Assembly: GCA_002753665.1 (NCBI GenBank)
Contig: PEAP01000004.1
Span: 1,516 to 65,515, forward strand
Length of the DNA stretch: 64,000 bases
Source: Magnetococcales bacterium DC0425bin3
GTDB lineage: Bacteria > Pseudomonadota > Magnetococcia > Magnetococcales > DC0425bin3
Direction: 5' to 3'
The notes below the pieces were generated by a model, which was not told where the DNA came from, did not search any database, and saw only the letters and a list, made by a program, of their open reading frames with translations. The translations under genes were made by a program, and so were the position numbers. Within the stretch, counting starts at the first letter, position 1. Each line of letters starts with the position of its first letter. Below are positions 444-23,090 of this stretch, piece after piece.

Positions 444-1475
444 TCAAGGCGGCGGTTGCAGGCCGGGAATGACGTTGATGCGGTCCAGAGCCCGTTCGGC
501 ATGGGCGGCGTAACAGTGGAACCGTTCCTGCCGGCAGAGCTGGATGAAATGGCGGATGCGGCGCAGGTTGCCCGGATCCCCGTGGTCACCGTTGTCCACA
601 TAGTCCAGTGCCAGCACGAAACGGTCTGCTCCGGCAGCGAGGATGCGCCGCAGGTGGGGTAGCCGGGCTGCCACCACCGCCTCGGGCTGGGGTTCGGTGG
701 CGTCGTACCAGGTATCCTCCACGCCGATGCCGGAGACGGTGTCGAGATACCGGCGGTCCCGGTCGTGGTCCAGGATCCGCTCCCCGTTCTGGGGCACCAC
801 CAGGAAGCCCGGCGCCTGCCGGCGGGCCCGCTGGGCGATCCAGAGGACCAGGTCGATCATATGCCGGGCCGCCAGCCCCTCGTCCCCTCGGGGATCTCCC
901 TTGCGGAATTCCTCCTGGCCCTTTTTCTTGCCGTAGTTGGCCGGATCCGCCCAGTATTCGAAGGCGTCGATGATATCCAGGTAGACGCCCTTGAAGCCCT
1001 GGCCCACGATGGTGTCCAGATACGGCCCCAGGACCTCATCCCGCCAGCTGGGATCCCAGTAACGCACCTTGTGGTTGCCGCCCCAGTCGGGATTGGTCTG
1101 CCCCAGCCAGGGGGGGGCGCTGCGGGGTTGGGACCAGGACGGTTGCCAGTAGGCCCGATAATCCTCCGCCTCGCCGATGGACAGATATGCCAGGGGCATG
1201 ACGCCCGCCTGCACCAGCAGGGCGATCTCGGCGGGGCGATAGCGGCCCGGGTCGCCGCCGTCCCGGGAATAGTCCATCACCACCAGGGGAAAACCCGCCT
1301 GGGCCACGGCCTCGGGCTGGGCCTCCTGGAGCTGCAGCAGGAACCCCCCCGGTTTGGGTAGAGGACCGGCCGAAGCCAAGCCGGGCAGCAGCAGAGTGGC
1401 GGCGGTCAGCAGGGTCCGCCCCAGGCCGCGGCAGGCCGCGAAGCCACCCTCCACCCACTGCGAGGGGTGGGTCAT
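444..1475 (-). CDS. Secreted GH114 / PelA-hydrolase-like TIM-barrel glycosidase (copy a)
   Basis: 343 aa from ATG 1475, which forms an ATGA overlap with the stop of the upstream ORF. Signal-like LLTAATLLLPGLASAG. Motifs VVMDYS, AYLSIGEAEDYRAYW, VRYWDPSW, GVYLDIID. The upstream part of the 608-aa ORF-track entry is an off-frame artefact. Confidence 0.7.
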   Translation of the reverse strand: MTHPSQWVEGGFAACRGLGRTLLTAATLLLPGLASAGPLPKPGGFLLQLQEAQPEAVAQAGFPLVVMDYSRDGGDPGRYRPAEIALLVQAGVMPLAYLSIGEAEDYRAYWQPSWSQPRSAPPWLGQTNPDWGGNHKVRYWDPSWRDEVLGPYLDTIVGQGFKGVYLDIIDAFEYWADPANYGKKKGQEEFRKGDPRGDEGLAARHMIDLVLWIAQRARRQAPGFLVVPQNGERILDHDRDRRYLDTVSGIGVEDTWYDATEPQPEAVVAARLPHLRRILAAGADRFVLALDYVDNGDHGDPGNLRRIRHFIQLCRQERFHCYAAHAERALDRINVIPGLQPPP

Positions 1476-3835
1476 GTGGATTTCCCCGCCGTCGATGCGG
1501 GTTTGATCTCCACCGTCACCGGGCGGATGGCCGGCCCGGGCAGTGTGAAGGTCAGCAGTCCCTGGTCGTCGGTCCGGGCCTGGGCCACCCGGGGGGAGCC
1601 ATCCTTGGCATCGACCGGGGTGACGGTGGCCTGGTAGGAACCGGCCTGGGGCATCTTCCAGGTCATTTCTCCGGGGCCGAAGCCCCGGGCCTGGAAGCGC
1701 AGGGTGGCGAGGCCCACCCGCTCCACCTGTTGCAGGTGCCAGCGGGCTTCCACCAGGTAGGGCAGCGGCGCGGCGGGGCGCCGGGCGGTGGCGGCATGGA
1801 AGCGCAGGGCGATGAGGGGCACCGCCACGGCGGGATCCAGGGCCACATACAGGCTGCCCTGGAGATGACGCTGGCCGATCACCCCCACCGATCGCTGAAA
1901 ATCCACCGCCCGCAGGGTGGCCTGGTCGAAGCGGATGGTCTGCAGGGCCCCCCGGTCCTGGATGGCCCAACGCCCCGTGCCATCGACGGCGATGCGGGCG
2001 CGGATGGCGCCCTCGGTGACGGCGGCGAAGCGGCTGGTCTCGATGGGGGCCAGGGGCCGGGAGGTGGCGTAGTTGAGATTGTTCAGCAGGGCGTTGAGGC
2101 TGGCGGTCTTGTCGGCGGAATAGGTGTGGTAATAGATGTTGAACGGTTTCAGGCGCCGGGGGCTCTCGGTGTTGCGCACCGTCTCCAGCAGATGCTTGAA
2201 ACCGAAGAAGCGTGAAGTCCAGAGGTTGGTATAGGTGTTCTCGTTGCTGCTGGAGGCGTAGGCCTGCCATTCCCGGCCCACCTGGCGCCCCAGGGGGGAG
2301 ACCCAGGCGACGGAGGGAAAATCCCCATCGAAGCGGGTATCGCCGCCGTTCAGGTTGGCCATGCCGGCCTCACGGGTGGCCCGCAGCACCGCCTCGTAGG
2401 GCATGGTGTTGCCGGACCACTGGATGATGGCCACCTTCTTGCCCGCCGGGGCGAGGGTCTCCAGGAACCGGGCCGAGCCGGCGATCTCCTTGTCGAGGTC
2501 GTAGGGCTGCAGGGCATAGACCCGGGGGGTCTTGTAATCCTCGGGCATGGCCTCCTGGCCGGTCCATTCCACCCCGGCGCCTTTCTTGGTGGGCACCAGG
2601 TGTCCGGGGGTCAGGTCCGGGGGAATGTGGCCCTGGGGCGGTTTTTTCAGGCCCACCGCCACCATCAGCCGGTCGATGCCGTCATGGACGGGACGTGGCG
2701 GGTAGAGGATCATGAATGGCTCCTCGCGCCGGGGGTCGTTGTCCTTGAAGAACGCCCAGAACAGGGGATGGCTGTAGGTGTGGCTGCCGGCCTCCACCTG
2801 GGGCAGGGCGAACATGTCCTGGGCCACCTGCATCAGCCGCTCGGAGCCGTACCAGGCCGGATCCAGGTCCGCGGCCACCGGGCCGATGGTTACCGGCAGG
2901 TCCGGAAAGCCGGCCACCACTTCCTTGAGCAGCACCTCGGAGGAATAGTACCCCTTGAGCCGGTATTTCTTGACCTCGGTGAAGTTGCGCCAGCCGTCGC
3001 CGTCCACATGGCTGTAGTAGATGCGCCGGTTGGAGAGGGTGGTGGCATCGGGCTTGGGCAGTTCGTCGGTGGCGAAGGCCAGCCGGAAGAAGCGGAACGG
3101 GTTGAGATACCACTGGAGGAAGTTTTCGGTGGGATCCGAAAAGAAGCTGTAGCCTTCCGCCACGAAGCCGCCCTGGGGTCCCACCCCGGCCAGCAGGATT
3201 TCCTCCGGCTCCTGGCTGCGGTCGCGCCGGGCAGTGAGCAGGGGAGTGATCCGCTCCGCATTGAAGTACATCTCCTGGAAGGAGGGCAGCACCCCGGTCA
3301 GGGGCCGTTCGAAATCGGTGATCTGGGGGTCGTAACGTTTCAGGGTGACCCCGTGGGTGAATTCCACCCAGCCACCCCCCTGGTGCCGCAAGCCCATGTG
3401 GGCATGGAAGGCCTGCACCAGTCGCAGGGGCGACGGTTTGCCGTTGGGATCCTGCTGATAGGCTTCCTGCCCCATGAGAACCACCCGGATGCCGGACTTC
3501 ATGGCGGCCAGCAGCCATTCCAGAAAGCGGTCCGGGTTGGCCATGCGGTCGGTATCCATCCACAGCAGGATGCCCCGCACGTCGGCCAGTTCGTCCCGGC
3601 CGGGCAGGGGATTGGCCAGATCGTGGTGGCGCACCACCAGTCCCAGATGGTTCAGGGGCATCTCGGCCAGCCGGTGGACCTTGCCGGCCCGGAAGCCGTC
3701 CTTGAGGCGGGAGCCGTCGTAGAAGGCCAGCACCGTGCGGGTCAGGGGTCGAAAGCCATCCGGGGGGCCGCCCTCCGCCCGTCCCGGGGCGGGCAGCCAC
3801 AGGCACAGCAGCAGGGTTGCCAGAAGGCGGGTCAT
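1472..3835 (-). CDS. pelA: PelA-like polysaccharide deacetylase (CE4 domain) without a hydrolase domain
   Basis: 787 aa with signal peptide MTRLLATLLLCLWLPAPGRAEG. CE4-type motifs YYSHVDGDGW and GSHTYSHP. ATGA overlaps at both ends (3832-3835 and 1472-1475). Sits next to pelB-G. Confidence 0.7.
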   Translation of the reverse strand: MTRLLATLLLCLWLPAPGRAEGGPPDGFRPLTRTVLAFYDGSRLKDGFRAGKVHRLAEMPLNHLGLVVRHHDLANPLPGRDELADVRGILLWMDTDRMANPDRFLEWLLAAMKSGIRVVLMGQEAYQQDPNGKPSPLRLVQAFHAHMGLRHQGGGWVEFTHGVTLKRYDPQITDFERPLTGVLPSFQEMYFNAERITPLLTARRDRSQEPEEILLAGVGPQGGFVAEGYSFFSDPTENFLQWYLNPFRFFRLAFATDELPKPDATTLSNRRIYYSHVDGDGWRNFTEVKKYRLKGYYSSEVLLKEVVAGFPDLPVTIGPVAADLDPAWYGSERLMQVAQDMFALPQVEAGSHTYSHPLFWAFFKDNDPRREEPFMILYPPRPVHDGIDRLMVAVGLKKPPQGHIPPDLTPGHLVPTKKGAGVEWTGQEAMPEDYKTPRVYALQPYDLDKEIAGSARFLETLAPAGKKVAIIQWSGNTMPYEAVLRATREAGMANLNGGDTRFDGDFPSVAWVSPLGRQVGREWQAYASSSNENTYTNLWTSRFFGFKHLLETVRNTESPRRLKPFNIYYHTYSADKTASLNALLNNLNYATSRPLAPIETSRFAAVTEGAIRARIAVDGTGRWAIQDRGALQTIRFDQATLRAVDFQRSVGVIGQRHLQGSLYVALDPAVAVPLIALRFHAATARRPAAPLPYLVEARWHLQQVERVGLATLRFQARGFGPGEMTWKMPQAGSYQATVTPVDAKDGSPRVAQARTDDQGLLTFTLPGPAIRPVTVEIKPASTAGKST

Positions 3836-4734
3836 GGTTTGGGCTCCGGCACCAGTTGATCCAGTTCGCGGGTACTCACATAGGGATGAAAGCCCAGGGC
3901 CCGCTGTTCCCGATAGAGGGTGGCGATGCCGGCCCGGTCGGTGGGCGACCAGTAGTCCAGGGTGAACACCTGCAGATGGGGATGCCGTCGGAGCGCCTCC
4001 CGCAGCTGTGCCACCTGCTGCCGGGACTCCTCCGCCGTCACCCGCCGGTACTCTCCGCTTGCCCCATGCCAGGCGGACCGGACCGATTCCCCCAGCACCA
4101 TGGTCAGCGCCCCGCCCACTTCGGGCAACAGGGCATAGGCCCGGTTGATCATGAGGGGGATGTCGGGATAATGCAGCCGGATGGTCAGGACCAGGTTTGC
4201 TGCCGCCCGGGTCATGCCGTGAAAGCGTTCGGGATCCCGTTCTTCCAGGAAGGGGGGATTGTCCAGGGTGTCCAGGAACAGCCCGTGGAAGCCGGCCTGG
4301 AGCAGGTTGGGGATCAGCTCCTCGATCACCTTGCGGGTCCAGCGCAGATCTCGCACATCCACCATGAAGCTGCCCGGCCAGTCGGGATTTTCTTCCAGCA
4401 GGAACCCCTGGGTCTGCAGGGACGGGAAATCGGGATGGTCCCGGGCCATCTCGCCCAGGCTCAGATAGGCCAGCAGCCGCTTGCCCCGCTCGATCAACGG
4501 TCGCAGGGGGGGATGCTGGCGGGGTTCCAGGACCAGAAGCTCATAGGGCTCCAGGGCGGTCAGGGTGACCTGATCGGAATAGAGGGCCGCCCAGGGGATG
4601 GGGGGCCCGCCCCGGGCCGGCAGAACCGGAAGCAGCAGCGTCAACAGGAAGAGGACAAGGAAGCGGCGGATCGGCACGGAATCGAACCCTGAAGGAAGAT
4701 GGATTGACCCCACAGGGTAAAGAGGATACTCCAT
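3832..4734 (-). CDS. GH114 / PelA-hydrolase-like TIM-barrel glycosidase (copy b)
   Basis: 300 aa with hydrophobic N-terminus FLVLFLLTLLLPVLPARG. Motifs LAYLSLGE, FMVDVRDLRW, GLFLDTLD parallel copy a. Divergent from pelB. Start uncertain. Confidence 0.6.
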   Translation of the reverse strand: MEYPLYPVGSIHLPSGFDSVPIRRFLVLFLLTLLLPVLPARGGPPIPWAALYSDQVTLTALEPYELLVLEPRQHPPLRPLIERGKRLLAYLSLGEMARDHPDFPSLQTQGFLLEENPDWPGSFMVDVRDLRWTRKVIEELIPNLLQAGFHGLFLDTLDNPPFLEERDPERFHGMTRAAANLVLTIRLHYPDIPLMINRAYALLPEVGGALTMVLGESVRSAWHGASGEYRRVTAEESRQQVAQLREALRRHPHLQVFTLDYWSPTDRAGIATLYREQRALGFHPYVSTRELDQLVPEPKP

Positions 4735-4863
4735 TTTCTCAAGTTTCCCCCTGCGGGGTCGGCCCCCGGGTGGGGATCAGTCCTCAAGGATCCCCGCCCG
4801 GGGGCCGACAAGGGGGATACCGGCCGTTCGCCATGCCGTCAACCTTCGGGAGATCGCCCCCGC

Positions 4864-7569
4864 ATGACCGCCATGTTCCGTTATGTTCTGGTCCTGCTGC
4901 TGCTGCTCTGCGCCGGCGCGGGGGTGGGGCGTTTGCTGCTGCCCACCAACGAGACCTTGGCCCTGATGTATCTGCGGGACCAGGACTACGACGAGGCGCG
5001 CAAGCTGTTCCAGAAGGATTTCACGGTGCGGGGGGGGACCTCGGCCACCACCATCATCCCCCTGGCCAATCTGTATCTCCAGCAGGGGGATGTCAACGCG
5101 GCCATTCTGACGGTGGAAGCCTTCCTGGAGCAGAATCCTCGCCACCTGGAGGCGCGCAAGCGCATCGGCACCTATTACCAGTTCGCCCAGCGGCCCGGTG
5201 ATTACCTGCGCAACCTGGAACGGATCGTTCGGCTGGAGCCCACCCGCAAGAATCTGGAGGAGCTGGCCTCCCTGTACAACTATCATTCCCGCCACGACGA
5301 TCAGATCCGGGTGTTGCGGGAGCTGACGGAACGTTTTCCGGAAGAGCCCAGCCATTTCGTTTCCCTGTCCCAGCTCCTGGCGACCCGGGGGCACAAGGGG
5401 GAGGGGGCGGATGTGCTGCTGTCGATGCGCCGGGAACATCTCAAGGCCTTCACCCCCGCCACCCACCGTCTGCTGGTGGAGCTGCTGCTGGACAGCGGGC
5501 GGGCTGAAGAGGCCTTCGAGGCCGCCCGGCAACGCACGATCGACTATTGGGTACCCCTGGAGGCCTTGGCCCTGGCCGATCTGCTCCACTATCGGGGCGG
5601 TCCGGAGTGGGGGTGGCGCTTCGTCACCCTGATGCGGGAACGCGATCCGGATTCGGAACGGATCCTGATCAAATGGACCGAACTGGCCATTCAGACCGGC
5701 CGATCCAACGAACCCTACCAGTTGCTGTTGGCCCTGAAAAATCAGAACCGCCTGCCCGAGACCGCCGCCCACCTGCTGACCGAACTGGCCCTGGCCGATC
5801 GCAAGCTGGACCTGGCCATGGAGGTGGCCCGGCTCACTCCTCCCGAGCGGCTGCCCGGCTGGTTGGCCACCCAGTTGGCGGAACAGGCGGTGCTGAACAA
5901 GCGCACCGATCTGGCGGAAGGCCTAGTGGCCCATCTGGGGCGGCCGTTCCTGGAGCAGCATCCCCTGCTGGCGGCAGAGCTGGCCCTGGCCCGCAACCGC
6001 GAGGGCGAGGCCCGGGTCTGGCTGGGCAAGGCGGGGCGCAACCTCAAGGAACCCGCGGAGCGCATGCAGCTGGCCCAGGTGCTGTTGCGCCTGCAGCAGG
6101 TGGAGGAGGGGATGATGGTGGTGGAAGATCTCCTGGGCCAACCCCAACTGCCCACCTGGATGCTGCGGGATTTGACCGGCCACATGGTGGCCCAGAAGCG
6201 GGCCGAGCGCGGCCTGGCGCTGATCACCGCGCTGCGGAGGTCCGACGACCGACCCGAGGTCCAGGAAGCCTGGGCCCTGCTGGCCGTCCACGCCGGGGGT
6301 CGGGAGCCGGAGGTGATGGCTTGGCTGGCGAGCCGCACCGATGCCAACCCGGGGCTCCTGGCGGACATAGCCAACGTGGCCCTGGACACCAAACAGTCCA
6401 ACTTGGCCTTGGCCGCCGCCCGGCGGCTGGTGGCCCAGGCGGCCGGGCCGGAACATCGTGTCATCCTGGCCCGGGCCCAGTTGGCCGCCGGCCATCCGGT
6501 GGCCGCCCTGGAACAGTTTCGCCAGATCGGCAAGAAGTTGACCAGGGAGCAGGCGGCCATCCATGGCGAGGCCCTGCTGGCCGCCTGGCGCCAGGGGCAT
6601 CATGACCGGAAAGCCCTGGGGGATTGGCTGCAACAGAGCCTGGCAGAGGCTGTCGGCCCCGAGCGGGTGGAGGAGCGCCGCGCCCTGGCCTTCGTGGCGC
6701 TGGAATCGGGTTTCGCGGAGCTGGCCCAGGAGACCTTCATGGCTCTGGCCGCGACGGCGGCCTTCGACAGCCCCGAGGTCGCCCAACTCGGCTATCTCTG
6801 GGGACCTCGCCCGGGCTCCAGGGCCCTGGATTGGCTGGAAGCCCGGGCCGAGACGGAACAACCCGACCGCAAGCATGGCTGGCTGAACATGATCACCGAC
6901 CTGGGGGCCCCGGAACGGGTGCTGACCCTGGTGGCCCGCTACGAGGAAACCGCCAGTGTGGTGGATGCCCACCTGCGGGCCCTGTCGCGCCTGAAGAAAA
7001 AGCCGGCCATCGATCAGCTCTTGCGCCGCCAGGTCTCCCGGGGACTGCCGGTGCCGCGCCTGGACCAGTTGGCCGCCGTGGCCGAGGCCGAGGAGCTGCC
7101 GGAGACCGCCGCCCTCATCTATCAAAAAGCCCTGGAAGCCGACGGCACCCACCACCTGGCCCTGCAACGGCTGGGGTACATGGCCTTTTTCGACGGGGAA
7201 TGGAAAAAATCGGTCAGCCTGCTGCAGCGCTATCTCCGCTACCATCCCGACAAGGCCAACTACGAACCCCATCTGTACATCGCCGAGGTATTCTGGGCCC
7301 AGGGAGAGCTGGAGCAGGCCAAGCCCTATTATCTCGACGCATTGGAAAAAATTGCCGCCAACCCGGACAAGCCTTACACCGTGCGGGTGGCCAAGGTGCG
7401 CATGCTGCAACGCATGGGCTGGGTGAACGAATCCCTGAAAGGCTACGAGGACCTGCTGCGGGAAAAGCCGGACGATCTGCGGGTCAAGGCGGACTATGTG
7501 GAACTGCTGCTGGCCCGGAAGAAAGTCGAAATGGCCCAGAACGTCATGCGCAAGGTGGGGGTACGGTGA
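4864..7569 (+). CDS. pelB: TPR-repeat protein, PelB N-terminal (TPR scaffold) equivalent
   Basis: 901 aa with N-terminal TM/signal FRYVLVLLLLLCAGAG. Helical repeat-rich sequence throughout, with clear TPRs near the C-terminus (YHPDKANYEPHLYIAEVFWAQGELEQAKPYYLDALE). First gene of the + strand pel operon. Confidence 0.7.
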   Translation: MTAMFRYVLVLLLLLCAGAGVGRLLLPTNETLALMYLRDQDYDEARKLFQKDFTVRGGTSATTIIPLANLYLQQGDVNAAILTVEAFLEQNPRHLEARKRIGTYYQFAQRPGDYLRNLERIVRLEPTRKNLEELASLYNYHSRHDDQIRVLRELTERFPEEPSHFVSLSQLLATRGHKGEGADVLLSMRREHLKAFTPATHRLLVELLLDSGRAEEAFEAARQRTIDYWVPLEALALADLLHYRGGPEWGWRFVTLMRERDPDSERILIKWTELAIQTGRSNEPYQLLLALKNQNRLPETAAHLLTELALADRKLDLAMEVARLTPPERLPGWLATQLAEQAVLNKRTDLAEGLVAHLGRPFLEQHPLLAAELALARNREGEARVWLGKAGRNLKEPAERMQLAQVLLRLQQVEEGMMVVEDLLGQPQLPTWMLRDLTGHMVAQKRAERGLALITALRRSDDRPEVQEAWALLAVHAGGREPEVMAWLASRTDANPGLLADIANVALDTKQSNLALAAARRLVAQAAGPEHRVILARAQLAAGHPVAALEQFRQIGKKLTREQAAIHGEALLAAWRQGHHDRKALGDWLQQSLAEAVGPERVEERRALAFVALESGFAELAQETFMALAATAAFDSPEVAQLGYLWGPRPGSRALDWLEARAETEQPDRKHGWLNMITDLGAPERVLTLVARYEETASVVDAHLRALSRLKKKPAIDQLLRRQVSRGLPVPRLDQLAAVAEAEELPETAALIYQKALEADGTHHLALQRLGYMAFFDGEWKKSVSLLQRYLRYHPDKANYEPHLYIAEVFWAQGELEQAKPYYLDALEKIAANPDKPYTVRVAKVRMLQRMGWVNESLKGYEDLLREKPDDLRVKADYVELLLARKKVEMAQNVMRKVGVR

Positions 7570-7667
7570 GGAGGTCCGGCCGGTTTGGCGCGGGGATTGC
7601 TTTGTTCTGGCGGGGATGAGAAACGGCTTCAACCCGAACCAGGGGTGCTTTGCCCCCCGATCCGACC

Positions 7668-9626: not shown

Positions 9627-9658
9627 AAAAAAATCTGGAGAAGGAACCCAACCAGCCC

Positions 9659-9670
9659 GGGGGGGGGGGG
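9659..9670. repeat. Poly-G homopolymer (12 nt) in the pelB-porin / pelC intergenic gap
   Basis: Twelve consecutive G, confirmed by the shadow-ORF reading APPPR. Lies 30 nt upstream of the pelC ATG. Confidence 0.95.
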
Positions 9671-9699
9671 CGTCAACATCGGAGTATGAGGAACCAGCG

Positions 9700-10287
9700 A
9701 TGAAGGTATTGCCGAAAACGAAACCGGGTCGGGGGATGCTGCTCATTCTCGGGCTGCTGGTGGCGGCCGGCTGTTCCCTGATCGGCGAGAACAGCAATTT
9801 CGTCCATCGGGAGCTGTCCACTGGCTTCGATCTGCATGTGGCGGTGTTGCCTTTCGAGAACCTGAGCAACAATCCCACGGCGGGGGTGGCGGTGTCCCAA
9901 CTGATGGCCACCGAACTCTATGCCCGCAAGGCATTCAGGATCATGGAAGAGAGCGAGATGCGCCGCCGTCTCACCATGCGCAAGGTGGATATGGACCGCC
10001 TGGCCGACGCCGCGGTGGCCCGCCAGGTGGCCATTCAACTGGGGGTGGACGCGGTGCTGATCGGCAGCGTGTCGGAATTCGCCTACCAGCATGGCCTGCG
10101 GGAGGAACCGGCGGTGGGGGTCAACGTACAGTTGATCCGCGCCCGGGATGGCTTGGTGATGTGGCGGGCCAGCCAGTCCCTGATGGGGTCCAACTTCTGG
10201 CGCCGTCAGAGCCTGATCCAGACCACCCAGCAGGCCGTGAACCGGCTGGTGGATGGACTGGTGGGTGCCACACTGCCGGAGGCCTGA
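9700..10287 (+). CDS. pelC: PelC-like outer-membrane lipoprotein
   Basis: 195 aa with lipobox LLVAAGCS. VAVLPFENLSNNPTAG motif typical of PelC/TolB-N-like lipoproteins. SD GAGGAA upstream. Confidence 0.75.
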   Translation: MKVLPKTKPGRGMLLILGLLVAAGCSLIGENSNFVHRELSTGFDLHVAVLPFENLSNNPTAGVAVSQLMATELYARKAFRIMEESEMRRRLTMRKVDMDRLADAAVARQVAIQLGVDAVLIGSVSEFAYQHGLREEPAVGVNVQLIRARDGLVMWRASQSLMGSNFWRRQSLIQTTQQAVNRLVDGLVGATLPEA

Positions 10288-10292
10288 CCGCC

Positions 10293-11705
10293 ATGAAGGT
10301 GCCACGGCAGGTGGCGGAAACCCCTCCGGAGCAGGCGGCGGGCATCCTGGCAGCCAGACCGCCCCGCTACGCCCTGGGTCTGCGGGTGGCGGCCTGGGGG
10401 GAGATGGCGTTGTTTTTCGCCATCGTGTTCGCCCTGGACTATTTCATGTTCGGGGGCAAACGCTTCGTCGATGTGTCTCCCCATCCCTACTGGATCATCG
10501 TCCTGCTGATCAGCACCCAGTACGGCACCGCCCACGGCCTGGCAGCCGCGGCCGTCGCGGTGGGCGCGCTGATGGTGGACAACATGCCCAAGCCGGAATT
10601 CGGCCAGGACGCCTTCCAATATGGCCTGGACTTGTTCCGGATGCCGCTGCTCTGGGTGGTGACGGCGGTGATCCTGGGGGAGCTGCGGGTGCGCAGCCTG
10701 CGGGAACGGGATACCCTGGTTCAGGAATTGACCCAGAGCCGGTCCCGGGAGCAGACCATCACCCAGGCCTACCAGAGGCTCAACGCCACCAAGGAACGCC
10801 TGGAAACCCAGGTGACCGGCCAGATGCGCACCGTGGTCAGCTCGTTCAAGGCGGCCAAGGCGGTGGAACAGCAGGATCCCGCCATGGTCCTGTCCGGGGC
10901 GGCGGACATGGTGCGCTCGGTGATGAACCCGGAGAAGTTTTCCGTCTATACCCTGTCCAAGGATGGCCTGGAGGTCACCATCCGCAACGGCTGGACCCAG
11001 GAAGACAATTTCAAGGAGAGCTTCGATCCCGGAACCCCCCTGTTCCAGGCGGTGGTGGGATCCCAGCGCTTTCTCTGCCTGGTCAACCGTCAGGACCGGG
11101 ATCTGCTGGATGACCAGGGTGTCCTGGCGGGTCCGCTGGTCAGCCGGGAGACCGGCAACGTCACCGGCATGATGAAGGTGGAGAATCTGGGCTTCCTGGA
11201 CCTCAACCTCAGTACCGTGGAAAATTTTAAGGCCCTGTGCGAATGGGTGGGCGCCAGCCATGACACGGCCCTGCGCTACCAGGCGGCCCGCTCCGACAGC
11301 GTGATCAACCACGACCACCAGCTCTTTTCCTTCGGCTTTTTTCCGCGCCAGGTGGAGTTGATGACCAACCTGGGACGACGACTCAATTTCGAGGTCACCC
11401 TGCTGGTGATTCGGGTGGAGAATCCCGACGATCTCACCCTGGAGGAACGCAAGAAGATTCCCGCGGCCATCGGCGCCGCCACCAAGGTGGTGATGCGCAA
11501 CACCGACATGGCGTTCGATTACGAACGGCCGGGGTTCGAATTCGCTTTGCTGCTGCCGGCCACCCCCGAGAAGAACATGTCCTTCGTGATCGCCAAGATG
11601 GAGGAGGCCATCAAGGGCCATGTGACCACCCAGGTGCCCCGGGCGCGATTTTCCCTCACCACCCAGGTGCTGCATAAACACCGGGAGGAGCCGGCCCGTG
11701 GCTGA
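10293..11705 (+). CDS. pelD: PelD-like inner-membrane c-di-GMP receptor (TM + GAF-like + degenerate GGDEF)
   Basis: 470 aa from ATG 10293. N-terminal TM helices and a coiled-coil. The C-terminal GGDEF-like domain has RNTD (RxxD I-site) and PGFEF in place of GGDEF. Confidence 0.75.
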   Translation: MKVPRQVAETPPEQAAGILAARPPRYALGLRVAAWGEMALFFAIVFALDYFMFGGKRFVDVSPHPYWIIVLLISTQYGTAHGLAAAAVAVGALMVDNMPKPEFGQDAFQYGLDLFRMPLLWVVTAVILGELRVRSLRERDTLVQELTQSRSREQTITQAYQRLNATKERLETQVTGQMRTVVSSFKAAKAVEQQDPAMVLSGAADMVRSVMNPEKFSVYTLSKDGLEVTIRNGWTQEDNFKESFDPGTPLFQAVVGSQRFLCLVNRQDRDLLDDQGVLAGPLVSRETGNVTGMMKVENLGFLDLNLSTVENFKALCEWVGASHDTALRYQAARSDSVINHDHQLFSFGFFPRQVELMTNLGRRLNFEVTLLVIRVENPDDLTLEERKKIPAAIGAATKVVMRNTDMAFDYERPGFEFALLLPATPEKNMSFVIAKMEEAIKGHVTTQVPRARFSLTTQVLHKHREEPARG

Positions 11706-12852
11706 CGCTCCCTTGGCCGCAGCCATGCCGCCGCTTCCGGAAGAGATCGCGCCGCAAACCGGACGGCGTTATCGCAAACGCTGCATCCTGTTTTTCATGG
11801 TGACCGCCCTGGGCGCCCTGGTGGCCGAGGGCTGGGCCATGTGGCATCTGCTGGGTTCGGAGTATGGGGCGTCCTGGATCGGTATCGTCCCTCCGGCCGT
11901 GGCCCATCTGGTGGTGTTGAAGATCCTGGTGACCATTGCCGTCTATTTTCACAACCGGCCGGAACATTGTTCCCGGAACATGTTCATGCTGCTGGCCGTG
12001 GCCACAGCCTTCATGGGTGTGCTGGGTATCCTGGGAACCGTGATCGCCTATCTGCTGCATCTGGAATACAACCAGGAGTCGGTCTCTTTCGAGGAATGGT
12101 ACGCCTCCCTGTTTCCCGAAGAGGAGCGCGGGGCCTCCCGGGAGCTGATGGAGCGGTTGCAGGCAGCGGGGGAGGAGGGGGGCTCCCTGACCCCTTTCAC
12201 CGATGTGTTGACCTACGGCACCCAGGCCCAGAAGCAGGCCATGATCGCTTTGATCAGCCGGGATTTTCGCCCCCAGTTCGCCCCGGTGCTGAACCAGGCC
12301 CTCAACGATCCCGACAACGCCGTGCGGGTGCAGGCCGCCACCGCCGCCACCCATGTGGAAAACCGCTTCATGAAGAAGTCCATGGAGTTGGAAGAGACCG
12401 TGGCCCGCAACCCGAAGGATGACAAGCAGTTGCTTGCCCTGGCCCGCCACTGCGACGACTATGCCTTCTCCGGCCTGCTGGAGGCCGAACGGGCCCGGGA
12501 ATACGGCGACAAGGCCCTGGCGGCCTACCGGAAATACCTCACCCTGCGTCCCGACGATGTGGCGGTGCGGGTGGCGGTGGGACGCCACCTGGTGCGGAGC
12601 CACCGGCTGGAGGAGGCGGCGCGTTATCTGGAAGAGGCCCTCCGGGGGGAGAAACCTTCCCCCCAGCTGGCGTTGTGGTACATGGAGACCCTCTATCAAC
12701 TCCGGCGCTTCGAACCCCTGGAGGAGCTGGCACGCCGGTATGGGCAGGACTTTACCGCCGCGGCGGGGTTTCCCGTGCAGGTGGTCGAGGCGGTGGGGCT
12801 GTGGGCCGGCGCCACCAGGGCGGCAACCCCTCAGCCGGCGGGGTACCGATGA
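11698..12852 (+). CDS. pelE: PelE-like inner-membrane TPR protein
   Basis: 384 aa. GTG 11698 overlaps the pelD stop by 8 nt. Two or more N-terminal TM helices, then TPR-like helices. Stop TGA 12850-12852 lies inside repeat copy 1. Confidence 0.65.
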   Translation: MADAPLAAAMPPLPEEIAPQTGRRYRKRCILFFMVTALGALVAEGWAMWHLLGSEYGASWIGIVPPAVAHLVVLKILVTIAVYFHNRPEHCSRNMFMLLAVATAFMGVLGILGTVIAYLLHLEYNQESVSFEEWYASLFPEEERGASRELMERLQAAGEEGGSLTPFTDVLTYGTQAQKQAMIALISRDFRPQFAPVLNQALNDPDNAVRVQAATAATHVENRFMKKSMELEETVARNPKDDKQLLALARHCDDYAFSGLLEAERAREYGDKALAAYRKYLTLRPDDVAVRVAVGRHLVRSHRLEEAARYLEEALRGEKPSPQLALWYMETLYQLRRFEPLEELARRYGQDFTAAAGFPVQVVEAVGLWAGATRAATPQPAGYR

Positions 12853-12912
12853 CAGTCGCTCTGCGACAGTCATCGGTGGAGGGTGGAGGGTGGCCTCCCC
12901 CATCCATCAAAG
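12844..12912 (+). repeat. Two-hairpin GGTGGAGGGTGGAGGG-box repeat, copy 1
   Basis: TACCGATGACAGTCGC-TCT-GCGACAGTCATCGG, then TGGAGGGTGGAGGG-TGGC-CTCCCCCATCCATCAAAG. Confidence 0.95.
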
Positions 12913-12913
12913 T

Positions 12914-12976
12914 TACCGATGACAGTCGCTCTGCGACAGTCATCGGTGGAGGGTGGAGGGAGGCCTCCCCCATCCA

Positions 12977-12982
<6 letters not shown>
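12914..12982 (+). repeat. Two-hairpin GGTGGAGGGTGGAGGG-box repeat, copy 2 (tandem with copy 1)
   Basis: Identical to copy 1 except T->A (12891 vs 12961). Period 70 bp. Confidence 0.95.
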
Positions 12983-13921
<939 letters not shown>

Positions 13922-13953
13922 TTTTCTTTCAGTGAAGGGATGCGGGGAGCATC

Positions 13954-15519
13954 ATGGCCCTGTTGAACCGTTGGCAAAAACCCCGGGAGGTGGCGACTGG
14001 TCCGGGCTTGGCACGGCCCCTCGACGATGTCTGTCTCATCGTGGAGGGCACCTATCCCTATGTGGCGGGTGGGGTGTCGGGTTGGACCCATGACCTGATC
14101 CGATCCCTGCCGGAGTTGACGTTTCATCTGCTGGCCGTGCTGCCGCCCAAGGCGGATCTGGCCATGCGGTACAAACTCCCCCCCAATGTCAGCGGCGTCA
14201 CCAACCTGTTCCTGGATCTGACCTCCAACCGGTTCCGCCGACCGTGCCGGGATGATAAGGATCTCTTTGCCCGGTTGGAAGCGGGAATCGAGCAATTCCA
14301 GGAGGAAGGCGGGCTGAGCCATCTCAACACCATCCTGACCACCCTGGCGCCCTGCCGGGAGCGGTTGAGCGGCCAGTATCTGCTCAACTCCAAACTCGGC
14401 TGGCAGATGGCCCTCAACCTCTACGAGAAATTCCTGCCCGGCGGTCCCTTCCTGGACTTCTTCTGGACCTGGCGGTTCGTGGCCGGCAACCTGATGACCA
14501 TCCTGTTGGGGCCCTTGCCCCGGGCCCGGGTCTATCATGCGGTGTCCACCGGTTATGCCGGCCTCTATCTGGCCCGGGCGCGGCTGGAGACCGGGCGGCC
14601 GGTGCTGGTGACCGAACACGGTATCTACACCAACGAACGTCGCATCGAAATCACCATGGCCGACTGGCTGTACGAAAAGCCCCGCAACAGCCTGCAGGTG
14701 GAGAAGAGCGACCGGGATGTGAAGGGCATCTGGATCAAGGCGTTTCAGGCCTACTCACTGGCCTGCTATCAGGCCAGTGAGCGGATCATCACCCTCTACA
14801 CTGGCAACCAGAACTTCCAGAAGGCCGATGGCGCCGATCCGGCGCGCATGAGCATCATCCCCAACGGCATCGACTGGCAACCGTTCGCCAATCTGGCCTC
14901 GGACCGGGGCAGCCGTCCCCCCACCATCGCCCTCATCGGGCGGGTGGTGCCCATCAAGGACATCAAGAGCTTCATCCGCGCCTGCGGCATGGTGCGGCGG
15001 GCGGTGCCCGAGGCCAAGGCCCTGATCATGGGCCCCCTGGAAGAGGACAAGGGCTACTACAACGAATGCCGGGATCTGATCCAGCACCAGGGCCTGGAAG
15101 AGATGATCACCTTCACCGGCCGGGTCAAGCTGACCGAATACCTGGGCCAGATTGATGTCAACGTGCTGACCAGCATCAGCGAGGGCCAGCCCCTGGTGAT
15201 CCTGGAGGCCGGGGCGGCGGGGGTGCCCAGCGTGTCCACCGACGTGGGCGGCTGCCGGGAGATGATCCTGGGCGCCCCCACCGAGGATCCGCCCCTGGGG
15301 CCCGGCGGGGCGGTCACCCCGGTGTCCAACCCGGCCGAGACCGCCAAAGCCCTGGTGGAACTGCTCATCAATCCGGCTTGGCATGCCCAGTGCGCGGCGG
15401 CGATTCGGGAGCGGATCAAGCGGTATTACGACCTGGCCGACCTGAAGAAGGCCTACCAGGATATCTATGACGACCTGCGGCGGCGTCCCGACGCCCCGCT
15501 GGGCAGCGAAACATACTGA
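13954..15519 (+). CDS. pelF: PelF-like GT4 glycosyltransferase
   Basis: 521 aa. N-terminal VCLIVEGTYPYVAGGVSGWTHDLI, the PelF-specific N-domain signature. C-terminal GT-B motifs (SISEGQPLVILEAGAAGVP). Confidence 0.85.
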   Translation: MALLNRWQKPREVATGPGLARPLDDVCLIVEGTYPYVAGGVSGWTHDLIRSLPELTFHLLAVLPPKADLAMRYKLPPNVSGVTNLFLDLTSNRFRRPCRDDKDLFARLEAGIEQFQEEGGLSHLNTILTTLAPCRERLSGQYLLNSKLGWQMALNLYEKFLPGGPFLDFFWTWRFVAGNLMTILLGPLPRARVYHAVSTGYAGLYLARARLETGRPVLVTEHGIYTNERRIEITMADWLYEKPRNSLQVEKSDRDVKGIWIKAFQAYSLACYQASERIITLYTGNQNFQKADGADPARMSIIPNGIDWQPFANLASDRGSRPPTIALIGRVVPIKDIKSFIRACGMVRRAVPEAKALIMGPLEEDKGYYNECRDLIQHQGLEEMITFTGRVKLTEYLGQIDVNVLTSISEGQPLVILEAGAAGVPSVSTDVGGCREMILGAPTEDPPLGPGGAVTPVSNPAETAKALVELLINPAWHAQCAAAIRERIKRYYDLADLKKAYQDIYDDLRRRPDAPLGSETY

Positions 15520-15521
15520 TC

Positions 15522-16907
15522 ATGGCGGGCATCGGCTTCGTACTGCGCAATCTCACCCGACAGGACAACCTGATGGGCCTGTTGGCCGGCTTCGGCTATT
15601 CGGCCCTGGTGGCCACCGGTCCCTGGCTGTTCACCATCATGGCCCTCTCCGCCACTCTCTATCTGGGCGGTCTGGTGACCAATTTCCATGAACAGGAAGG
15701 GTTCCGCATCATCATCATCTACAATTTCGCTTTCTCCCTGGTGTTTTCCGGGCCGGTGGTGATGGTGGTGACCCGCTATGTGGCGGACCGCATCTACATC
15801 AAGGATGTGCAGAAGGTGCCGGGCAGCCTGATCGGCGGTCTGGTGCTGTTGTTCGGGACCCAGGCGCCCCTGGCGGGGGTGTTCTATTTCTTTGCCGTGG
15901 ATCTCACCCTGGTGGTGCGGCTGCATGCCCTGACCAACTATTTCCTCATCACCGGCATCTGGCTGGCGGCGGTCTACATCACTGCCCTCAAGGATTACCA
16001 GGCGGTGATCCGCACCTTCCTGATCGGCATGGCCATGGGCACGGTCTCCAACGCCTTTTTGGCCACGGAATACGGTCTGGCGGGCATGCTGTTCGGCTTC
16101 AACGTGGGGTTGGCCATCATCTTCTTTTCGCTGTGCGCTCGGGTGTTCGCCGAATATCCCCACGAGGCCACCCAGGTGTTCGATTTCATGTCCCACTTCC
16201 GCAAATACTGGGCACTGGCCCTGGGGGGACTGTTCTTCAACATGGCCTCCTGGGTGGACAAGTGGATCATGTGGTTCAGCCCCCACAGCACCCCGGCGGT
16301 GGGGGGATTTCCGTCCTATTCCGACTACGACGGCGCCATGTTCCTGGCCTACCTCTCCATCGTCCCCTCCATGGCCACCTTCGTGCTGAGCATGGAGACG
16401 GGCTTCTTCGAAAAATATCTGAAATTCTACCAGGATATCCAGAAACATGTGTCCCTGGCCCGCATCATGGAAAACCATCGGGCCATGATCGACTCCATCC
16501 ATGGCAGCGGCCGCAACTTTCTGGTGCTGCAGGGGGCGATCAGCCTGCTGGCGGTCCTCATGGCCCCCCAGCTCCTGGGCTGGCTGGGCATCAACTTCCT
16601 GCAATTGAGCATCTACCGTCTGGGCGTGATGGGGTCGTTCTACCATGTGATGGTGCTGTTTCTGGGGATCGTGCTGTCCTATTTCGATTTCCGCAATCAG
16701 TTCCTGATGATCAGCGCGGTGTTCCTGGCCAGCAACCTGATTCTGACCACCGTCTCCATGAAACTGGGGTTCGCCTATTACGGCTACGGCTACTTCGGTG
16801 CCACCATGATCACCTTCGCGGTGGCCTTCCTCATCACCTTCAAACGGGTGGTGGATCTGCCCTATCACACCTTCATCAGCCAGAACGTCTCGGTCTCGAA
16901 GGGGTGA
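15522..16907 (+). CDS. pelG: PelG-like polytopic polysaccharide export/polymerase membrane protein
   Basis: 461 aa. Starts MAGIGFVLRNLTRQDNLMGLLAGFGYSALV, as PelG does. About 12 TM segments. Begins 3 nt after pelF. Confidence 0.85.
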   Translation: MAGIGFVLRNLTRQDNLMGLLAGFGYSALVATGPWLFTIMALSATLYLGGLVTNFHEQEGFRIIIIYNFAFSLVFSGPVVMVVTRYVADRIYIKDVQKVPGSLIGGLVLLFGTQAPLAGVFYFFAVDLTLVVRLHALTNYFLITGIWLAAVYITALKDYQAVIRTFLIGMAMGTVSNAFLATEYGLAGMLFGFNVGLAIIFFSLCARVFAEYPHEATQVFDFMSHFRKYWALALGGLFFNMASWVDKWIMWFSPHSTPAVGGFPSYSDYDGAMFLAYLSIVPSMATFVLSMETGFFEKYLKFYQDIQKHVSLARIMENHRAMIDSIHGSGRNFLVLQGAISLLAVLMAPQLLGWLGINFLQLSIYRLGVMGSFYHVMVLFLGIVLSYFDFRNQFLMISAVFLASNLILTTVSMKLGFAYYGYGYFGATMITFAVAFLITFKRVVDLPYHTFISQNVSVSKG

Positions 16908-16917
16908 GCGCCCCGGA

Positions 16918-17874
16918 CTACTTGCTCGCCTCCATGTCGAAGAACATGCCGAACAGGAGGAACTGCAGGCCGAAGATGAGCAACAGGGCATCCAGGATGG
17001 AGCGGGGACCGGTGACGGCGTAGCCGCCGTAGAACAGCCGGTCGATCACCAGCCAGCCCCCCAGGACCGAGCCCAGGGTCAGGAAGAGGAAGGCCAGCCA
17101 GAAGAAGAAGAACACCGGGTGGAAATCCCGGTAGACATACTTGAATTTCAGACGCCACATGAAGCCCCGCAGCAGCATGGGCGCCACCCGCAGGGCGTAG
17201 CGGAAGCTCTTGATCTGGGACTGCCGCTCTCCGGGCAGATAGATGGGCGCCCGGCCCACGTCCACCACCCGCAGGCCATAGGCGTTGAGCCGAATCAGGA
17301 AATCCATGGGATAACCATAGCCTTTCCAGGCCTGGTCCCAGTTGACGGTGTCGATGGCGGCCTTGCTGATGACGGTATAGCCGTCCACCACATCCATGAC
17401 CTTGTAGCAGCCCGAGGCGATCTTGGTGAGCATGGTGATGATCCAGTTGCCCACCAGGCGGCTCTTGGGCATTTTTTCCAGGGATTCTGCCAGGTTGCTG
17501 CCGATGAACCGGTTGCCCTTGGCATAATCGGCCACTCCGTCCACCACCGGGCGCAGCAGCGCTCCCACCTCGCCCAGATTCATCTGATTGTCCCCACCGA
17601 CCACCACCGTGATATCGTGGCCCTCCTGGCTGGCTTGCCGATAGCCGGTGATGATCGCTCCCCCCGGACCGGTATTGACCGCATGCTGAAGCAGGCGGAT
17701 CCGGGCGTCCCGGGCGGCCTGGGCCAGGACCACTGCGTTCTGGTTGTCCGGGCTGTGGTCGTCCACCACATAGACAGTGTCGAACAGGGGGGGGATCCCC
17801 TCCAGGGTCGGGCCGATGAGGCGCGCCTCGTTGTAGGCCGGAATGACCAGGGCGATCCGTTTTCCTTCGAACAT
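16918..17874 (-). CDS. Family 2 glycosyltransferase with C-terminal TM helices
   Basis: 318 aa. IALVIPAYNEARLI...VVDDHSPD (GT-A DxD context). Two C-terminal hydrophobic helices. Convergent with pelG. Confidence 0.8.
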   Translation of the reverse strand: MFEGKRIALVIPAYNEARLIGPTLEGIPPLFDTVYVVDDHSPDNQNAVVLAQAARDARIRLLQHAVNTGPGGAIITGYRQASQEGHDITVVVGGDNQMNLGEVGALLRPVVDGVADYAKGNRFIGSNLAESLEKMPKSRLVGNWIITMLTKIASGCYKVMDVVDGYTVISKAAIDTVNWDQAWKGYGYPMDFLIRLNAYGLRVVDVGRAPIYLPGERQSQIKSFRYALRVAPMLLRGFMWRLKFKYVYRDFHPVFFFFWLAFLFLTLGSVLGGWLVIDRLFYGGYAVTGPRSILDALLLIFGLQFLLFGMFFDMEASK

Positions 17875-23053: not shown

Positions 23054-23090
23054 CATTGAGGGTGGAGGGGTGCTTCCCCCATCCATCAAG
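23054..23090 (+). repeat. Two-hairpin repeat, copy 3 (conserved hairpin-2 half; 5' half divergent)
   Basis: CATTGAGGGTGGAGGGG-TGC-TTCCCCCATCCATCAAG. An extra GTGAGGGTGGAAGAAGGG box lies at 23026-23043. Confidence 0.8.

Follow-up and report, generated by a model that had tools for sequence, protein, structure and literature searches.

Pel is a cationic exopolysaccharide of GalNAc and GalN, its defining product being a partially deacetylated alpha-1,4-GalNAc polymer. The reference arrangement of its genes is the single co-directional pelABCDEFG cluster of Pseudomonas aeruginosa. Variants of this layout have been catalogued, and that survey (Bundalovic-Torma 2020, PLoS Comput Biol, Fig 5; PMC7112194) lists rearrangement of pelA relative to pelB, fission of pelB and gain of the locus; in the text searched, neither Magnetococcales nor an insertion between pelE and pelF is mentioned. 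Marmont et al. 2020 place the epimerase gene pelX, for 136 loci, at three positions, all outside pelA-G: upstream of pelA, either co-directional (70%) or divergent (24%), and downstream of pelG (5%). Glycoside hydrolases of family GH191 (TmGH191/TM1410 and Env-GH191; Acta Cryst D 2025) are endo-alpha-1,4-galactosaminidases, of which Env-GH191 degrades Pel; genomic context is not discussed in that paper (PMC12054363).

We analysed a stretch of 64,000 nucleotides (hereafter the window) from a Magnetococcales metagenome-assembled genome (MAG), the first part of which had been interpreted, in a sequence-only reading, as a rearranged pel locus. Our analysis makes it likely that this region is a complete and intact gene cluster for Pel synthesis and export in an uncultured magnetotactic coccus of the Magnetococcales, and that it is arranged as at least four transcription units, not as one operon; this confidence is a joint one, covering the intact system, the multi-unit layout, and the working and history proposed below. 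The features of the region are as follows:

2 to 442, plus strand: 3' end of a gene for a GGDEF diguanylate cyclase (PF00990 GGDEF, 131 bits)
444 to 1478, minus strand: predicted secreted glycoside hydrolase of family GH191 (TM1410/MJ1477-type), 344 aa, with signal peptide (TIGR01370)
1472 to 3835, minus strand: pelA deacetylase part (PelA_DA), 787 aa, with signal peptide (PDB PelA 9CGY)
3832 to 4734, minus strand: pelA hydrolase part (PelA_H, GH166-type), 300 aa (PDB 5TCB, 92 bits; PF03537, 68 bits)
4735 to 4863, no strand: intergenic region from which pelA_H and pelB_N diverge; an outer stem of 7 bp encloses an inverted repeat of 21 bp (4758-4809)
4864 to 7569, plus strand: pelB N-terminal gene, signal or anchor helix and TPR scaffold, 901 aa (multiple TPR Pfam matches)
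7650 to 9626, plus strand: C-terminal gene of the split pelB, probably starting at ATG 7668, with its own signal peptide, a beta-sandwich, TPR and a 16-strand barrel (AlphaFold, fold search)
9700 to 10287, plus strand: pelC lipoprotein (PDB PelC; lipobox LVAAGC)
10293 to 11705, plus strand: PelD-like predicted c-di-GMP receptor, with TM helices, GAF and a degenerate GGDEF (RNTD I-site, PGFEF) (GAF_3, 54 bits)
11698 to 12852, plus strand: pelE, TM helices and a TPR-like C-terminal part (TPR Pfam matches at residues 260-340)
12844 to 12982, no strand: REP-like palindrome of 70 nt, present twice in tandem with one mismatch between the copies, the pair filling the convergent pelE/pelX gap
12977 to 13921, minus strand: PelX-type SDR, predicted UDP-GlcNAc C4-epimerase (PDB PelX 6WJB/6WJ9)
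13954 to 15519, plus strand: pelF, GT4 glycosyltransferase (NF038011, DUF3492)
15522 to 16907, plus strand: pelG, polytopic membrane protein (PF16933, 439 bits)
16918 to 17874, minus strand: glycosyltransferase of family GT2 that resembles polyprenyl-phosphate transferases and has two TM helices at its C-terminus (PF00535, 57 bits)

When the translations were compared with profiles, solved structures and folds, every gene that the sequence-only reading had assigned to Pel kept its assignment by one of these routes, in the case of PelD only as a PelD-like protein, and PelC to PelG were found in the canonical order that it had described. PelF scored 444 bits against NF038011 (cut-off 100) and 272 bits against DUF3492 (PF11997), and the PelG match spanned its profile from end to end (positions 1-452 of 452). 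PelC, recognised as a lipoprotein from the start, carries the lipobox and matched PelC in the PDB (9H80_C, E 1.8e-10; also 5T11, 5T10 and 5T0Z). In pelE there are three hydrophobic segments, at 29-123, and its orthologues lie between pelD and pelF in relatives.

PelB is encoded by two ORFs, as had been proposed, both with TPR matches. The second, PelB_C, was modelled with AlphaFold as a 16-strand outer-membrane barrel ending in F (barrel pLDDT >90), and in a fold search it came closest to PelB as seen in the PelBC complex (9H80_M; E 1.3e-16, TM 0.72), with BcsC and PgaA next. Going by this model, PelB_C is the predicted PelB porin; a single-sequence search of the PDB with it returned nothing, and a profile search returned generic TPR proteins only. 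We rejected a frameshift as the cause of the split, since relatives have the same two ORFs (pelB_N being a separate ORF of ~900 aa there) and PelB_C has a signal peptide of its own.

For the PelD-like gene, whose true start is at ~10293, the TM helices and degenerate GGDEF noted earlier were seen again, together with the GAF domain and the RNTD and PGFEF motifs. The modelled GAF and GGDEF folds matched PelD (4ETZ/4DN0) at E 2e-7 to 4e-6, with other GAF-GGDEF proteins ranking higher. By sequence, a single-sequence search found no match to PelD in the PDB, a profile search found generic GGDEF proteins only, and PF16963 (PelD_GGDEF), run against the genome with a control set that held no positive genome, gave no match at this gene. 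Its architecture would fit a c-di-GMP receptor. A possible source of c-di-GMP is the neighbouring diguanylate cyclase, whose gene converges on the GH191 gene; GGDEF genes also occur near pel in two relatives (loci L015 and L142).

The PelA functions are located on the minus strand at 444-4734, as originally read, and are divided between a hydrolase and a deacetylase ORF, with the GH191 gene third in the block. PelA_DA aligned to residues 426-869 of PelA (9CGY; E 1e-55, 192 bits) and is 45-49% identical to its orthologues in the pel loci of relatives, and PelA_H matched the PelA hydrolase domain (5TCB). The two are thus the predicted Pel deacetylase and hydrolase. Their genes overlap by 4 nt (ATGA), and the start of the GH191 gene overlaps the stop of the PelA_DA gene, a translational coupling. 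The GH191 protein scored above the threshold of its family model (271 bits, cut-off 181) and matched TM1410 (9EUZ/2AAM) at 238 bits, which points to a galactosaminidase-like enzyme of this family. It thereby shares its family match with TmGH191/TM1410 and Env-GH191, and differs in that its gene is coupled to a pel deacetylase gene. GH191 genes adjoin pel elsewhere too: 12 of 80 metagenomic pel loci (collected with a PelF scan built on an alignment) have one, as does a Nitrospinaceae locus, and this recurrence lends genomic support to Pel being the natural substrate of the family. A longer ORF of 608 aa (444-2270) was discarded as a high-GC shadow extension of the 344-aa gene.

The inverted repeat between pelA_H and pelB_N (RNA fold -63 kcal/mol, z -5.4) is unique in the genome and is not conserved in relatives. 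We sought inverted repeats able to mediate inversion at the borders of the pelA block and found none, nor any REP-like copies there.

The coding strand switches at 4734/4864, 12852/12977, 13921/13954 and 16907/16918, and the locus is therefore not a single co-directional pelABCDEFG array. A consensus promoter scan found no promoter-like site at any expected position in the locus, and a terminator scan found terminator-like sites at background level only. The last switch is due to the GT2 gene, which converges on pelG 10 nt from its stop, as had been reported; the implied link to pel did not hold, with no homologue at the pel locus of any relative compared or in five relatives' genomes. Its matches to the AglJ and PpgS models fell below their cut-offs, and it is probably a bystander outside the Pel system.

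We compared this layout with those of relatives, a comparison that the sequence-only reading had also called for, and the result divided its claim of an unusual architecture. The split genes, offered there as a difference from the Pseudomonas model, are not a novelty: every one of the six pel loci captured in full from relatives of the same order has pelA and pelB each split, with pelA_H, pelA_DA, pelB_N, pelB_C, C, D, E, F and G as co-directional, separate ORFs, and fission of pelB is catalogued in PMC7112194. Nor is the divergent pelA block, since pelA_DA and pelA_H are also divergent from pelB_N in three genomes (G024, G031 and G017) of the related genus with the closest PelF, and pelA rearrangement is among the catalogued classes. 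The antisense pelX in the pelE-pelF gap, on the other hand, was found in none of the other loci compared.

So many strand switches might be taken as a sign of erosion, i.e., of a locus that is being reassorted and no longer makes Pel, and there are such hints nearby: the genomes of the same family (G001-G003) are without pelF, and genus g16 has its pel genes divided between two loci. However, none of the 11 pel-type ORFs is truncated; they keep conserved motifs, signal peptides and coupled junctions, and are 36-67% identical to their orthologues over the full length, making decay extremely improbable. The pel ORFs are free of internal stops and have tight or overlapping junctions (at 3832-3835, 1472-1478, 10287/10293 and 15519/15522). 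Our reading hence remains that of an intact locus, whose polymer, by homology with Pseudomonas, is predicted to be Pel.

The gene at 12977-13921, initially recognised as an epimerase antisense between pelE and pelF, is of the PelX type. Its best matches in the PDB were PelX 6WJB/6WJ9 (257/254 bits, the next match scoring 188), it has the GxxGxxG motif (GGYGFIG), and its S124/Y148/K152 align with S121/Y146/K150 of PelX in 6WJB; it is therefore predicted to be a UDP-GlcNAc C4-epimerase. The starts of pelX and pelF are head to head, 32 nt apart. The suspicion that such a position is unlike described loci was borne out: none of the three published positions has pelX antisense between pelE and pelF, and among the loci compared this placement is particular to this genome. 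The pelE-pelF gap held no pelX in 19 Magnetococcales loci or in 10 pel-linked pelX loci, and the placement was seen in none of ~110 other loci overall. Among the 80 metagenomic loci, pelD-E-F-G were co-directional in every one and uninterrupted wherever pelE was detected, and in the 58 with both pelE and pelF detected and a positive gap this gap was at most 353 nt. Five further metagenomic loci have pelX after pelG.

The epimerase had also been described as bracketed by mobile-looking repeats. This proved incorrect, as the repeat lies at its 3' end only (12844-12982) and the 32 nt that separate pelX from pelF at their starts contain none. The REP-like pair contains both the pelE and pelX stop codons and folds strongly (-95 kcal/mol, z -9.9). 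Its family is spread over many contigs of the genome: full copies number at least 40 (86-92% identity), and ~310 matches are partial. Like REP/BIME elements of proteobacteria, it is short (70 nt), palindromic, intergenic and sometimes tandem, with many diverged copies, and yet its sequence is unrelated to described REP families.

A junction formed by a tandem pair of a repeat with hundreds of relatives, in a MAG of 230 contigs, invites the question of whether pelB-E and pelX-pelF-pelG were falsely joined there, with the tandem copy number uncertain as well. We consider this very unlikely. The other copies are only 86-92% identical, so the short exact words of the junction would be unique for the most part, and a second contig on record (113 kb, compared to 90 kb here) carries the same PelG and mostly the same neighbouring proteins. 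Moreover, the head-to-head pelX/pelF junction is unique sequence, and pelX is therefore beside pelF either way.

To trace the epimerase, we placed it in a pelX tree, where it was sister to epimerases of family f10 (support 100/97), inside a Magnetococcales clade. It nests among genes that are not pel-linked and does not share common descent with the pel-linked PelX genes. Orthologues were present in 39 of 56 Magnetococcales genomes, in varied non-pel contexts, and none was at a pel locus where this could be compared. This grouping suggests a relocated resident gene, not an imported pelX, and going by the tree, the linkage to pel here looks independent of that of other pel-linked pelX. Transfer of a ready-made pelX from Alphaproteobacteria, the source of the best outside matches (at most 64% identity), was rejected, as Magnetococcales homologues are closer (at most 69%) and the tree agrees. 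In this MAG, the genes that flank the nearest epimerase relatives have their counterparts on separate contigs, and no empty ancestral site was seen.

Since the orthologues in relatives are not linked to pel, the position here could be incidental: a general UDP-hexose/UDP-HexNAc 4-epimerase (serving, e.g., LPS or other glycans) may have been dropped in by a REP-associated rearrangement, with no selected link to Pel. The varied contexts of the orthologues, the place of the gene among them and not in the pel-linked clades, and the genome-wide repeat that abuts it all fit such a passenger. Even so, we regard it as unlikely. The gene is the only PelX match in the genome at E<=1e-60, and any UDP-GalNAc used for Pel would thus be made by this sole close homologue wherever it was located. 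In addition, the "pel-linked" label changes at least six times on the pelX tree and the five metagenomic loci have pelX after pelG, so that linkage arose repeatedly in other lineages and appears favoured, supporting the notion of selection for keeping precursor supply together with the synthase.

With pelX antisense between pelE and pelF, there would be two ways to transcribe pelF-pelG: a promoter located within pelX, or read-through from pelE that crosses the REP hairpins and runs antisense to pelX. A far more speculative idea, to which we give little credence, is that the head-to-head pelX/pelF pair and the convergent pelE/pelX pair with its hairpins form a built-in antisense switch, in which read-through from pelBCDE is needed for pelFG and transcribes antisense pelX, such that synthase expression and UDP-GalNAc supply are reciprocally tuned by transcriptional interference, with REP copy number setting the read-through.

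Taken together, by homology with Pseudomonas, these results suggest the following working of the system. c-di-GMP would bind the PelD-like receptor, and an inner-membrane complex of PelD, E, F and G would polymerise UDP-GalNAc, made from UDP-GlcNAc by the PelX-type epimerase. In the periplasm, the separate PelA_DA and PelA_H would modify and trim the polymer, joined by the coupled GH191 galactosaminidase-like enzyme, and the product would leave through the PelB_C barrel under the PelC ring, with the TPR protein PelB_N as scaffold. As to history, the two-gene pelA and two-gene pelB would be the order-wide state, and the divergent pelA block would stem from an inversion in a sub-lineage to which one related genus also belongs; the resident epimerase would then have come to lie antisense between pelE and pelF, beside a REP-like element that has since been duplicated. 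With these findings, Magnetococcales join the lineages in which a complete Pel system is present, and the genes for Pel prove more tolerant of reshuffling than the Pseudomonas model implies. Even pelD-E-F-G, the most conserved block, can be split. The accepted view of how Pel works is unchanged.

Compared to P. aeruginosa, all seven functions are represented, that of PelD by the PelD-like protein, and the C-D-E-F-G order is kept, but PelA and PelB are each encoded by two genes, a GH191 gene has been added to the pelA block, this block is read divergently, an opposite-strand epimerase gene interrupts pelE-pelF, and the GGDEF-like domain of the PelD-like protein is probably too diverged for a PF16963 match (the control set being without a positive genome). 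Magnetococcus marinus MC-1 has the same pel gene set with split pelA and pelB (PelF 63% and PelG 66% identical), whereas its nine pel genes are co-directional, its PelX orthologue is ~3.5 Mb away and its GH191 gene lies ~380 kb from pel. Among proteins of solved structure, the one nearest to the epimerase is PelX of Pseudomonas protegens Pf-5 (PFL_2971; 6WJ9/6WJA/6WJB; Marmont et al. 2020), which shares the motif and triad and whose gene is likewise pel-linked; in contrast to it and to the published positions, the gene here is internal and antisense, and groups with epimerases that are not pel-linked. As a departure from described pel loci, then, what is new is this placement of pelX in the layout of a known system, while the remaining oddities, including the split pelA and pelB and the divergent pelA block, are mostly common to relatives or already described.

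The window has a G+C content of ~65%, so that long shadow ORFs are common, and gene calls were restricted to frames backed by homology. In the resulting layout, the hydrolase and deacetylase parts of PelA (PelA_H and PelA_DA) and the two halves of PelB (PelB_N and PelB_C) are encoded by separate genes.

Layout of the pel locus in the window (coordinates, strand, feature)
2-442, plus strand: 3' end of a GGDEF cyclase gene, called by homology
444-4734, minus strand: three genes, GH191 hydrolase, pelA_DA and pelA_H
after 4734 and before 4864: divergent gap of 129 nt between pelA_H and pelB_N
4864-12852, plus strand: five genes, pelB_N to pelE
12844-12982: repeat of 139 nt, filling the convergent pelE/epimerase gap
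12977-13921, minus strand: epimerase gene
13954-16907, plus strand: two genes, pelF and pelG
16918-17874, minus strand: GT2 gene

The sequence-only reading had proposed a Pel-type locus, and the searches agree, assigning PelF, PelG, the PelA halves, PelC and PelB_C by profile, structure or fold match. With profile HMMs, PelF reached 444 bits against NCBIfam NF038011, whose cut-off is 100, and 272 bits against DUF3492, PelG scored 439 bits on PF16933 (whole profile covered), and the GH191 protein scored 271 bits on TIGR01370 (cut-off 181), while PelA_DA (1472-3835, 787 aa) had no Pfam match. PelA_DA can be aligned with full-length PelA 9CGY over residues 426-869 (E 1e-55), its deacetylase and C-terminal part, and PelA_H (3832-4734, 300 aa) matches the structure solved for the PelA hydrolase domain (5TCB, 92 bits), bearing out the placement of the PelA functions on a divergent minus-strand block (444-4734). 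The gene junctions of this block overlap (3832-3835 and 1472-1478), and its three genes are probably translated as one unit. PelB does comprise two ORFs, as first read: a 901-aa TPR protein with a hydrophobic helix at its N-terminus (PelB_N), and a porin with its own signal peptide, a probable start at 7668 and the C-terminal end ...RMRF (PelB_C). The PelB_C model combines a beta-sandwich with five TPR-like helices and a barrel of 16 strands (pLDDT above 90); in a fold search it best matched PelB in the PelBC export complex (chain 9H80_M, E 1.3e-16, target TM-score 0.72), with BcsC and PgaA ranking next. PelC carries a lipobox and matches the PelC chains 9H80_C, 5T11, 5T10 and 5T0Z, and PelE has three hydrophobic segments and TPR matches. 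The gap between pelB_C and pelC contains a run of 12 G (9659-9670).

The pelD-like gene most likely starts at 10293, directly after the pelC stop. Its product combines TM helices and a GAF domain (54 bits) with the motif RNTD followed by PGFEF, the latter occupying the GG(D/E)EF position of cyclases. Sequence searches against PF16963 and PDB PelD gave no match. Its AlphaFold model (mean pLDDT 80), with GAF and GGDEF folds, matches PelD 4ETZ, 4EU0, 4DMZ and 4DN0 (E 2e-7 to 4e-6), with other GAF-GGDEF proteins ranking higher; the name "PelD-like" is therefore given for its architecture and position. The locus is a real Pel locus, apparently intact, with a gene layout that calls for four or more transcription units. 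The pelA_H/pelB_N gap holds a near-perfect inverted repeat of 21 bp (4758-4809; fold of -63 kcal/mol), whose arms are 10 nt apart and which sits within an outer stem of 7 bp; it occurs once in the genome, is missing from the equivalent gap of two relatives (G024 and G031), and might act as an operator or bidirectional structure.

In six genomes of the same order (Magnetococcales), from four families, pelA_H, pelA_DA, pelB_N, pelB_C and pelC to pelG all run in one direction, and both pelA and pelB are present as two ORFs. These splits are therefore the normal state of the order, and frameshifts were rejected as their explanation, given the same two-ORF state in all six. In genus g16, which holds the closest PelF (63-67% identity), pelA_DA and pelA_H are divergent from pelB_N, as in the window (genomes G024, G031 and G017); in G017, an 8-kb insert separates pelB_N from pelA_H and the pelA_DA match falls into two overlapping pieces. 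In the extracted g16 loci L013-L017, L020 and L138-L141 the pel genes lie over two contigs, with pelB_C to pelG apart from pelA_DA/pelA_H/pelB_N. PelE of this genus carries a ~150-aa extension (~535 aa vs 384). In a second locus of G031 (L142, G031:C205:27000-46999), pelC-D-E-F occupy one strand and pelG, pelA_H, pelA_DA, pelB_N and pelB_C the other, with pelF apart from pelG. Together, the divergence in g16 and this layout indicate that multi-strand pel layouts are common in the order. A locus from an uncultured Rhizobiaceae MAG (L027) has pelX, pelA_DA, a gap, pelD, pelE, pelA_H and pelB_N on one strand in scrambled order.

The epimerase is an extended SDR (190 bits on the Epimerase profile) with a GGYGFIG motif. 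Its best solved relatives are 6WJB (257 bits) and 6WJ9/6WJA (254 bits), the next match reaching 188 bits. We take these three entries to be P. protegens PelX (Marmont et al. 2020). With S124, Y148 and K152 aligning with PelX S121, Y146 and K150, the PelX-type identity first proposed is upheld. The PelX positions aligned to this triad are those that differ between the 6WJB and 6WJ9 sequences, in agreement with the S121A/Y146F construct named in Marmont et al. 2020.

Epimerase orthologues (50-69% identity) occur in 39 of the 56 genomes of the order; where a pel locus was also located, they lie on a different contig or far from it (3.5 Mb in genome G015), and their gene surroundings differ from family to family. 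Within this genome, only one match reaches E<=1e-60. A maximum-likelihood tree built from 94 sequences places the window's epimerase as sister to proteins of family f10 (100/97), within a clade made up of 11 sequences from Magnetococcales and 2 others (99/83), values that are rough since the bootstrap fell short of full convergence. The label "pel-linked" changes at least six times across this tree. Read most simply, these results would mean that an epimerase gene already resident in the genome moved into the pel cluster, and that linkage of epimerase genes to pel is recurrent.

Two tandem 70-nt units, differing at one base, fill the whole convergent gap from pelE to the epimerase gene, with the pelE stop inside unit 1 and the epimerase stop inside unit 2. 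At least 40 full-length copies (86-92% identity) are spread over many contigs, alongside ~310 partial matches, several of them elsewhere in the window (near 23058, 46569, 47694, 48730, 53890, 61086 and 63525). Given these many copies and the strong fold of the dimer (-95 kcal/mol, z -9.9), the unit belongs to a REP-like family; this palindromic element is occasionally tandem, and its second half is the more abundant. The epimerase gene had been described as bracketed by mobile-looking repeats, which does not hold: the repeat lies at its 3' end only, and at the other end the epimerase and pelF starts face each other head-to-head across 32 nt of unique sequence.

As the source is a 3.7-Mb MAG in 230 contigs and the pelE/pelX junction sits inside a repeat, the contig might be mis-joined there; we consider this very unlikely, since the other repeat copies are at least 8% diverged and a second recorded contig of another size, which may not be an independent assembly, has the same PelG and mostly the same neighbour proteins. 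That contig, JADFWZ010000003.1 (113,433 bp, against 90,320 bp here), has an identical PelG and the locus offset by ~23 kb, so the locus is on record in two assemblies or versions.

ORF 444-2270 was rejected as a gene, being a shadow extension; the real GH191 start is ATG 1478, giving a 344-aa protein with a signal peptide (238 bits vs Thermotoga TM1410). Homologues occur in only 3 of the 56 genomes, in G015 380 kb away from pel, and four others inspected have an unrelated conserved gene context. A Nitrospinaceae contig (L146) has pelD-E-F-G followed by pelX and GH191, and among 80 metagenomic loci, 12 have a GH191-like gene directly after pelG (L151, L153, L156, L199, L211, L213-L216, L218, L224 and L227), which suggests that GH191 recurs as an accessory hydrolase of Pel. 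Env-GH191, a member of this family, degrades Pel (PMC12054363); gene context is not discussed in the paper that defines GH191. Two TM helices lie at the C-terminus of the GT2 protein, which resembles the polyprenyl-phosphate sugar transferases AglJ and PpgS, whose models it matched below their cut-offs. PpgS uses UDP-GalNAc, and a tie of GT2 to the UDP-GalNAc pool is speculative. Neither the relatives' pel loci nor the genomes of five relatives yielded a GT2 homologue, and GT2 is thus treated as a neighbour.

By homology with the Pseudomonas system, c-di-GMP would activate PelD, and UDP-GalNAc supplied by the epimerase would be polymerised by PelDEFG. The polymer would then be deacetylated by PelA_DA, trimmed by PelA_H and GH191, and exported through PelB_C with PelC, PelB_N serving as the putative assembly scaffold. 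With the pelX and pelF starts only 32 nt apart, either the pelF promoter lies inside pelX or pelFG are expressed by read-through from pelE; in the latter case, transcription would putatively run across the REP hairpins, antisense to pelX, into pelFG.

Compared with other pel loci, the rearranged multi-strand layout is real but mostly not novel: the splits and the pelA divergence are shared by relatives, and pelA rearrangement, pelB fission and locus gain are listed classes of pel operon evolution (Bundalovic-Torma et al. 2020, PMC7112194). The internal antisense epimerase, by contrast, had been read as unlike described loci, and so it proved. The pelE-pelF gap lacks an epimerase in 19 Magnetococcales loci, in 80 metagenomic loci, and in 10 loci where one of the 80 closest epimerase homologues from reference genomes is linked to pel, these last having it upstream of pelA or downstream of pelG. 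In the metagenomic set, pelD-E-F-G are co-directional in every locus, and the gap is at most 353 nt in the 58 where pelE and pelF were both detected and the gap was positive. In 136 published loci, pelX takes three positions, all outside pelA-G (Marmont et al. 2020). Most "non-canonical" traits of this locus are thus lineage-wide or already catalogued, while the internal antisense PelX gene, whose regulatory meaning is putative, is a new arrangement.
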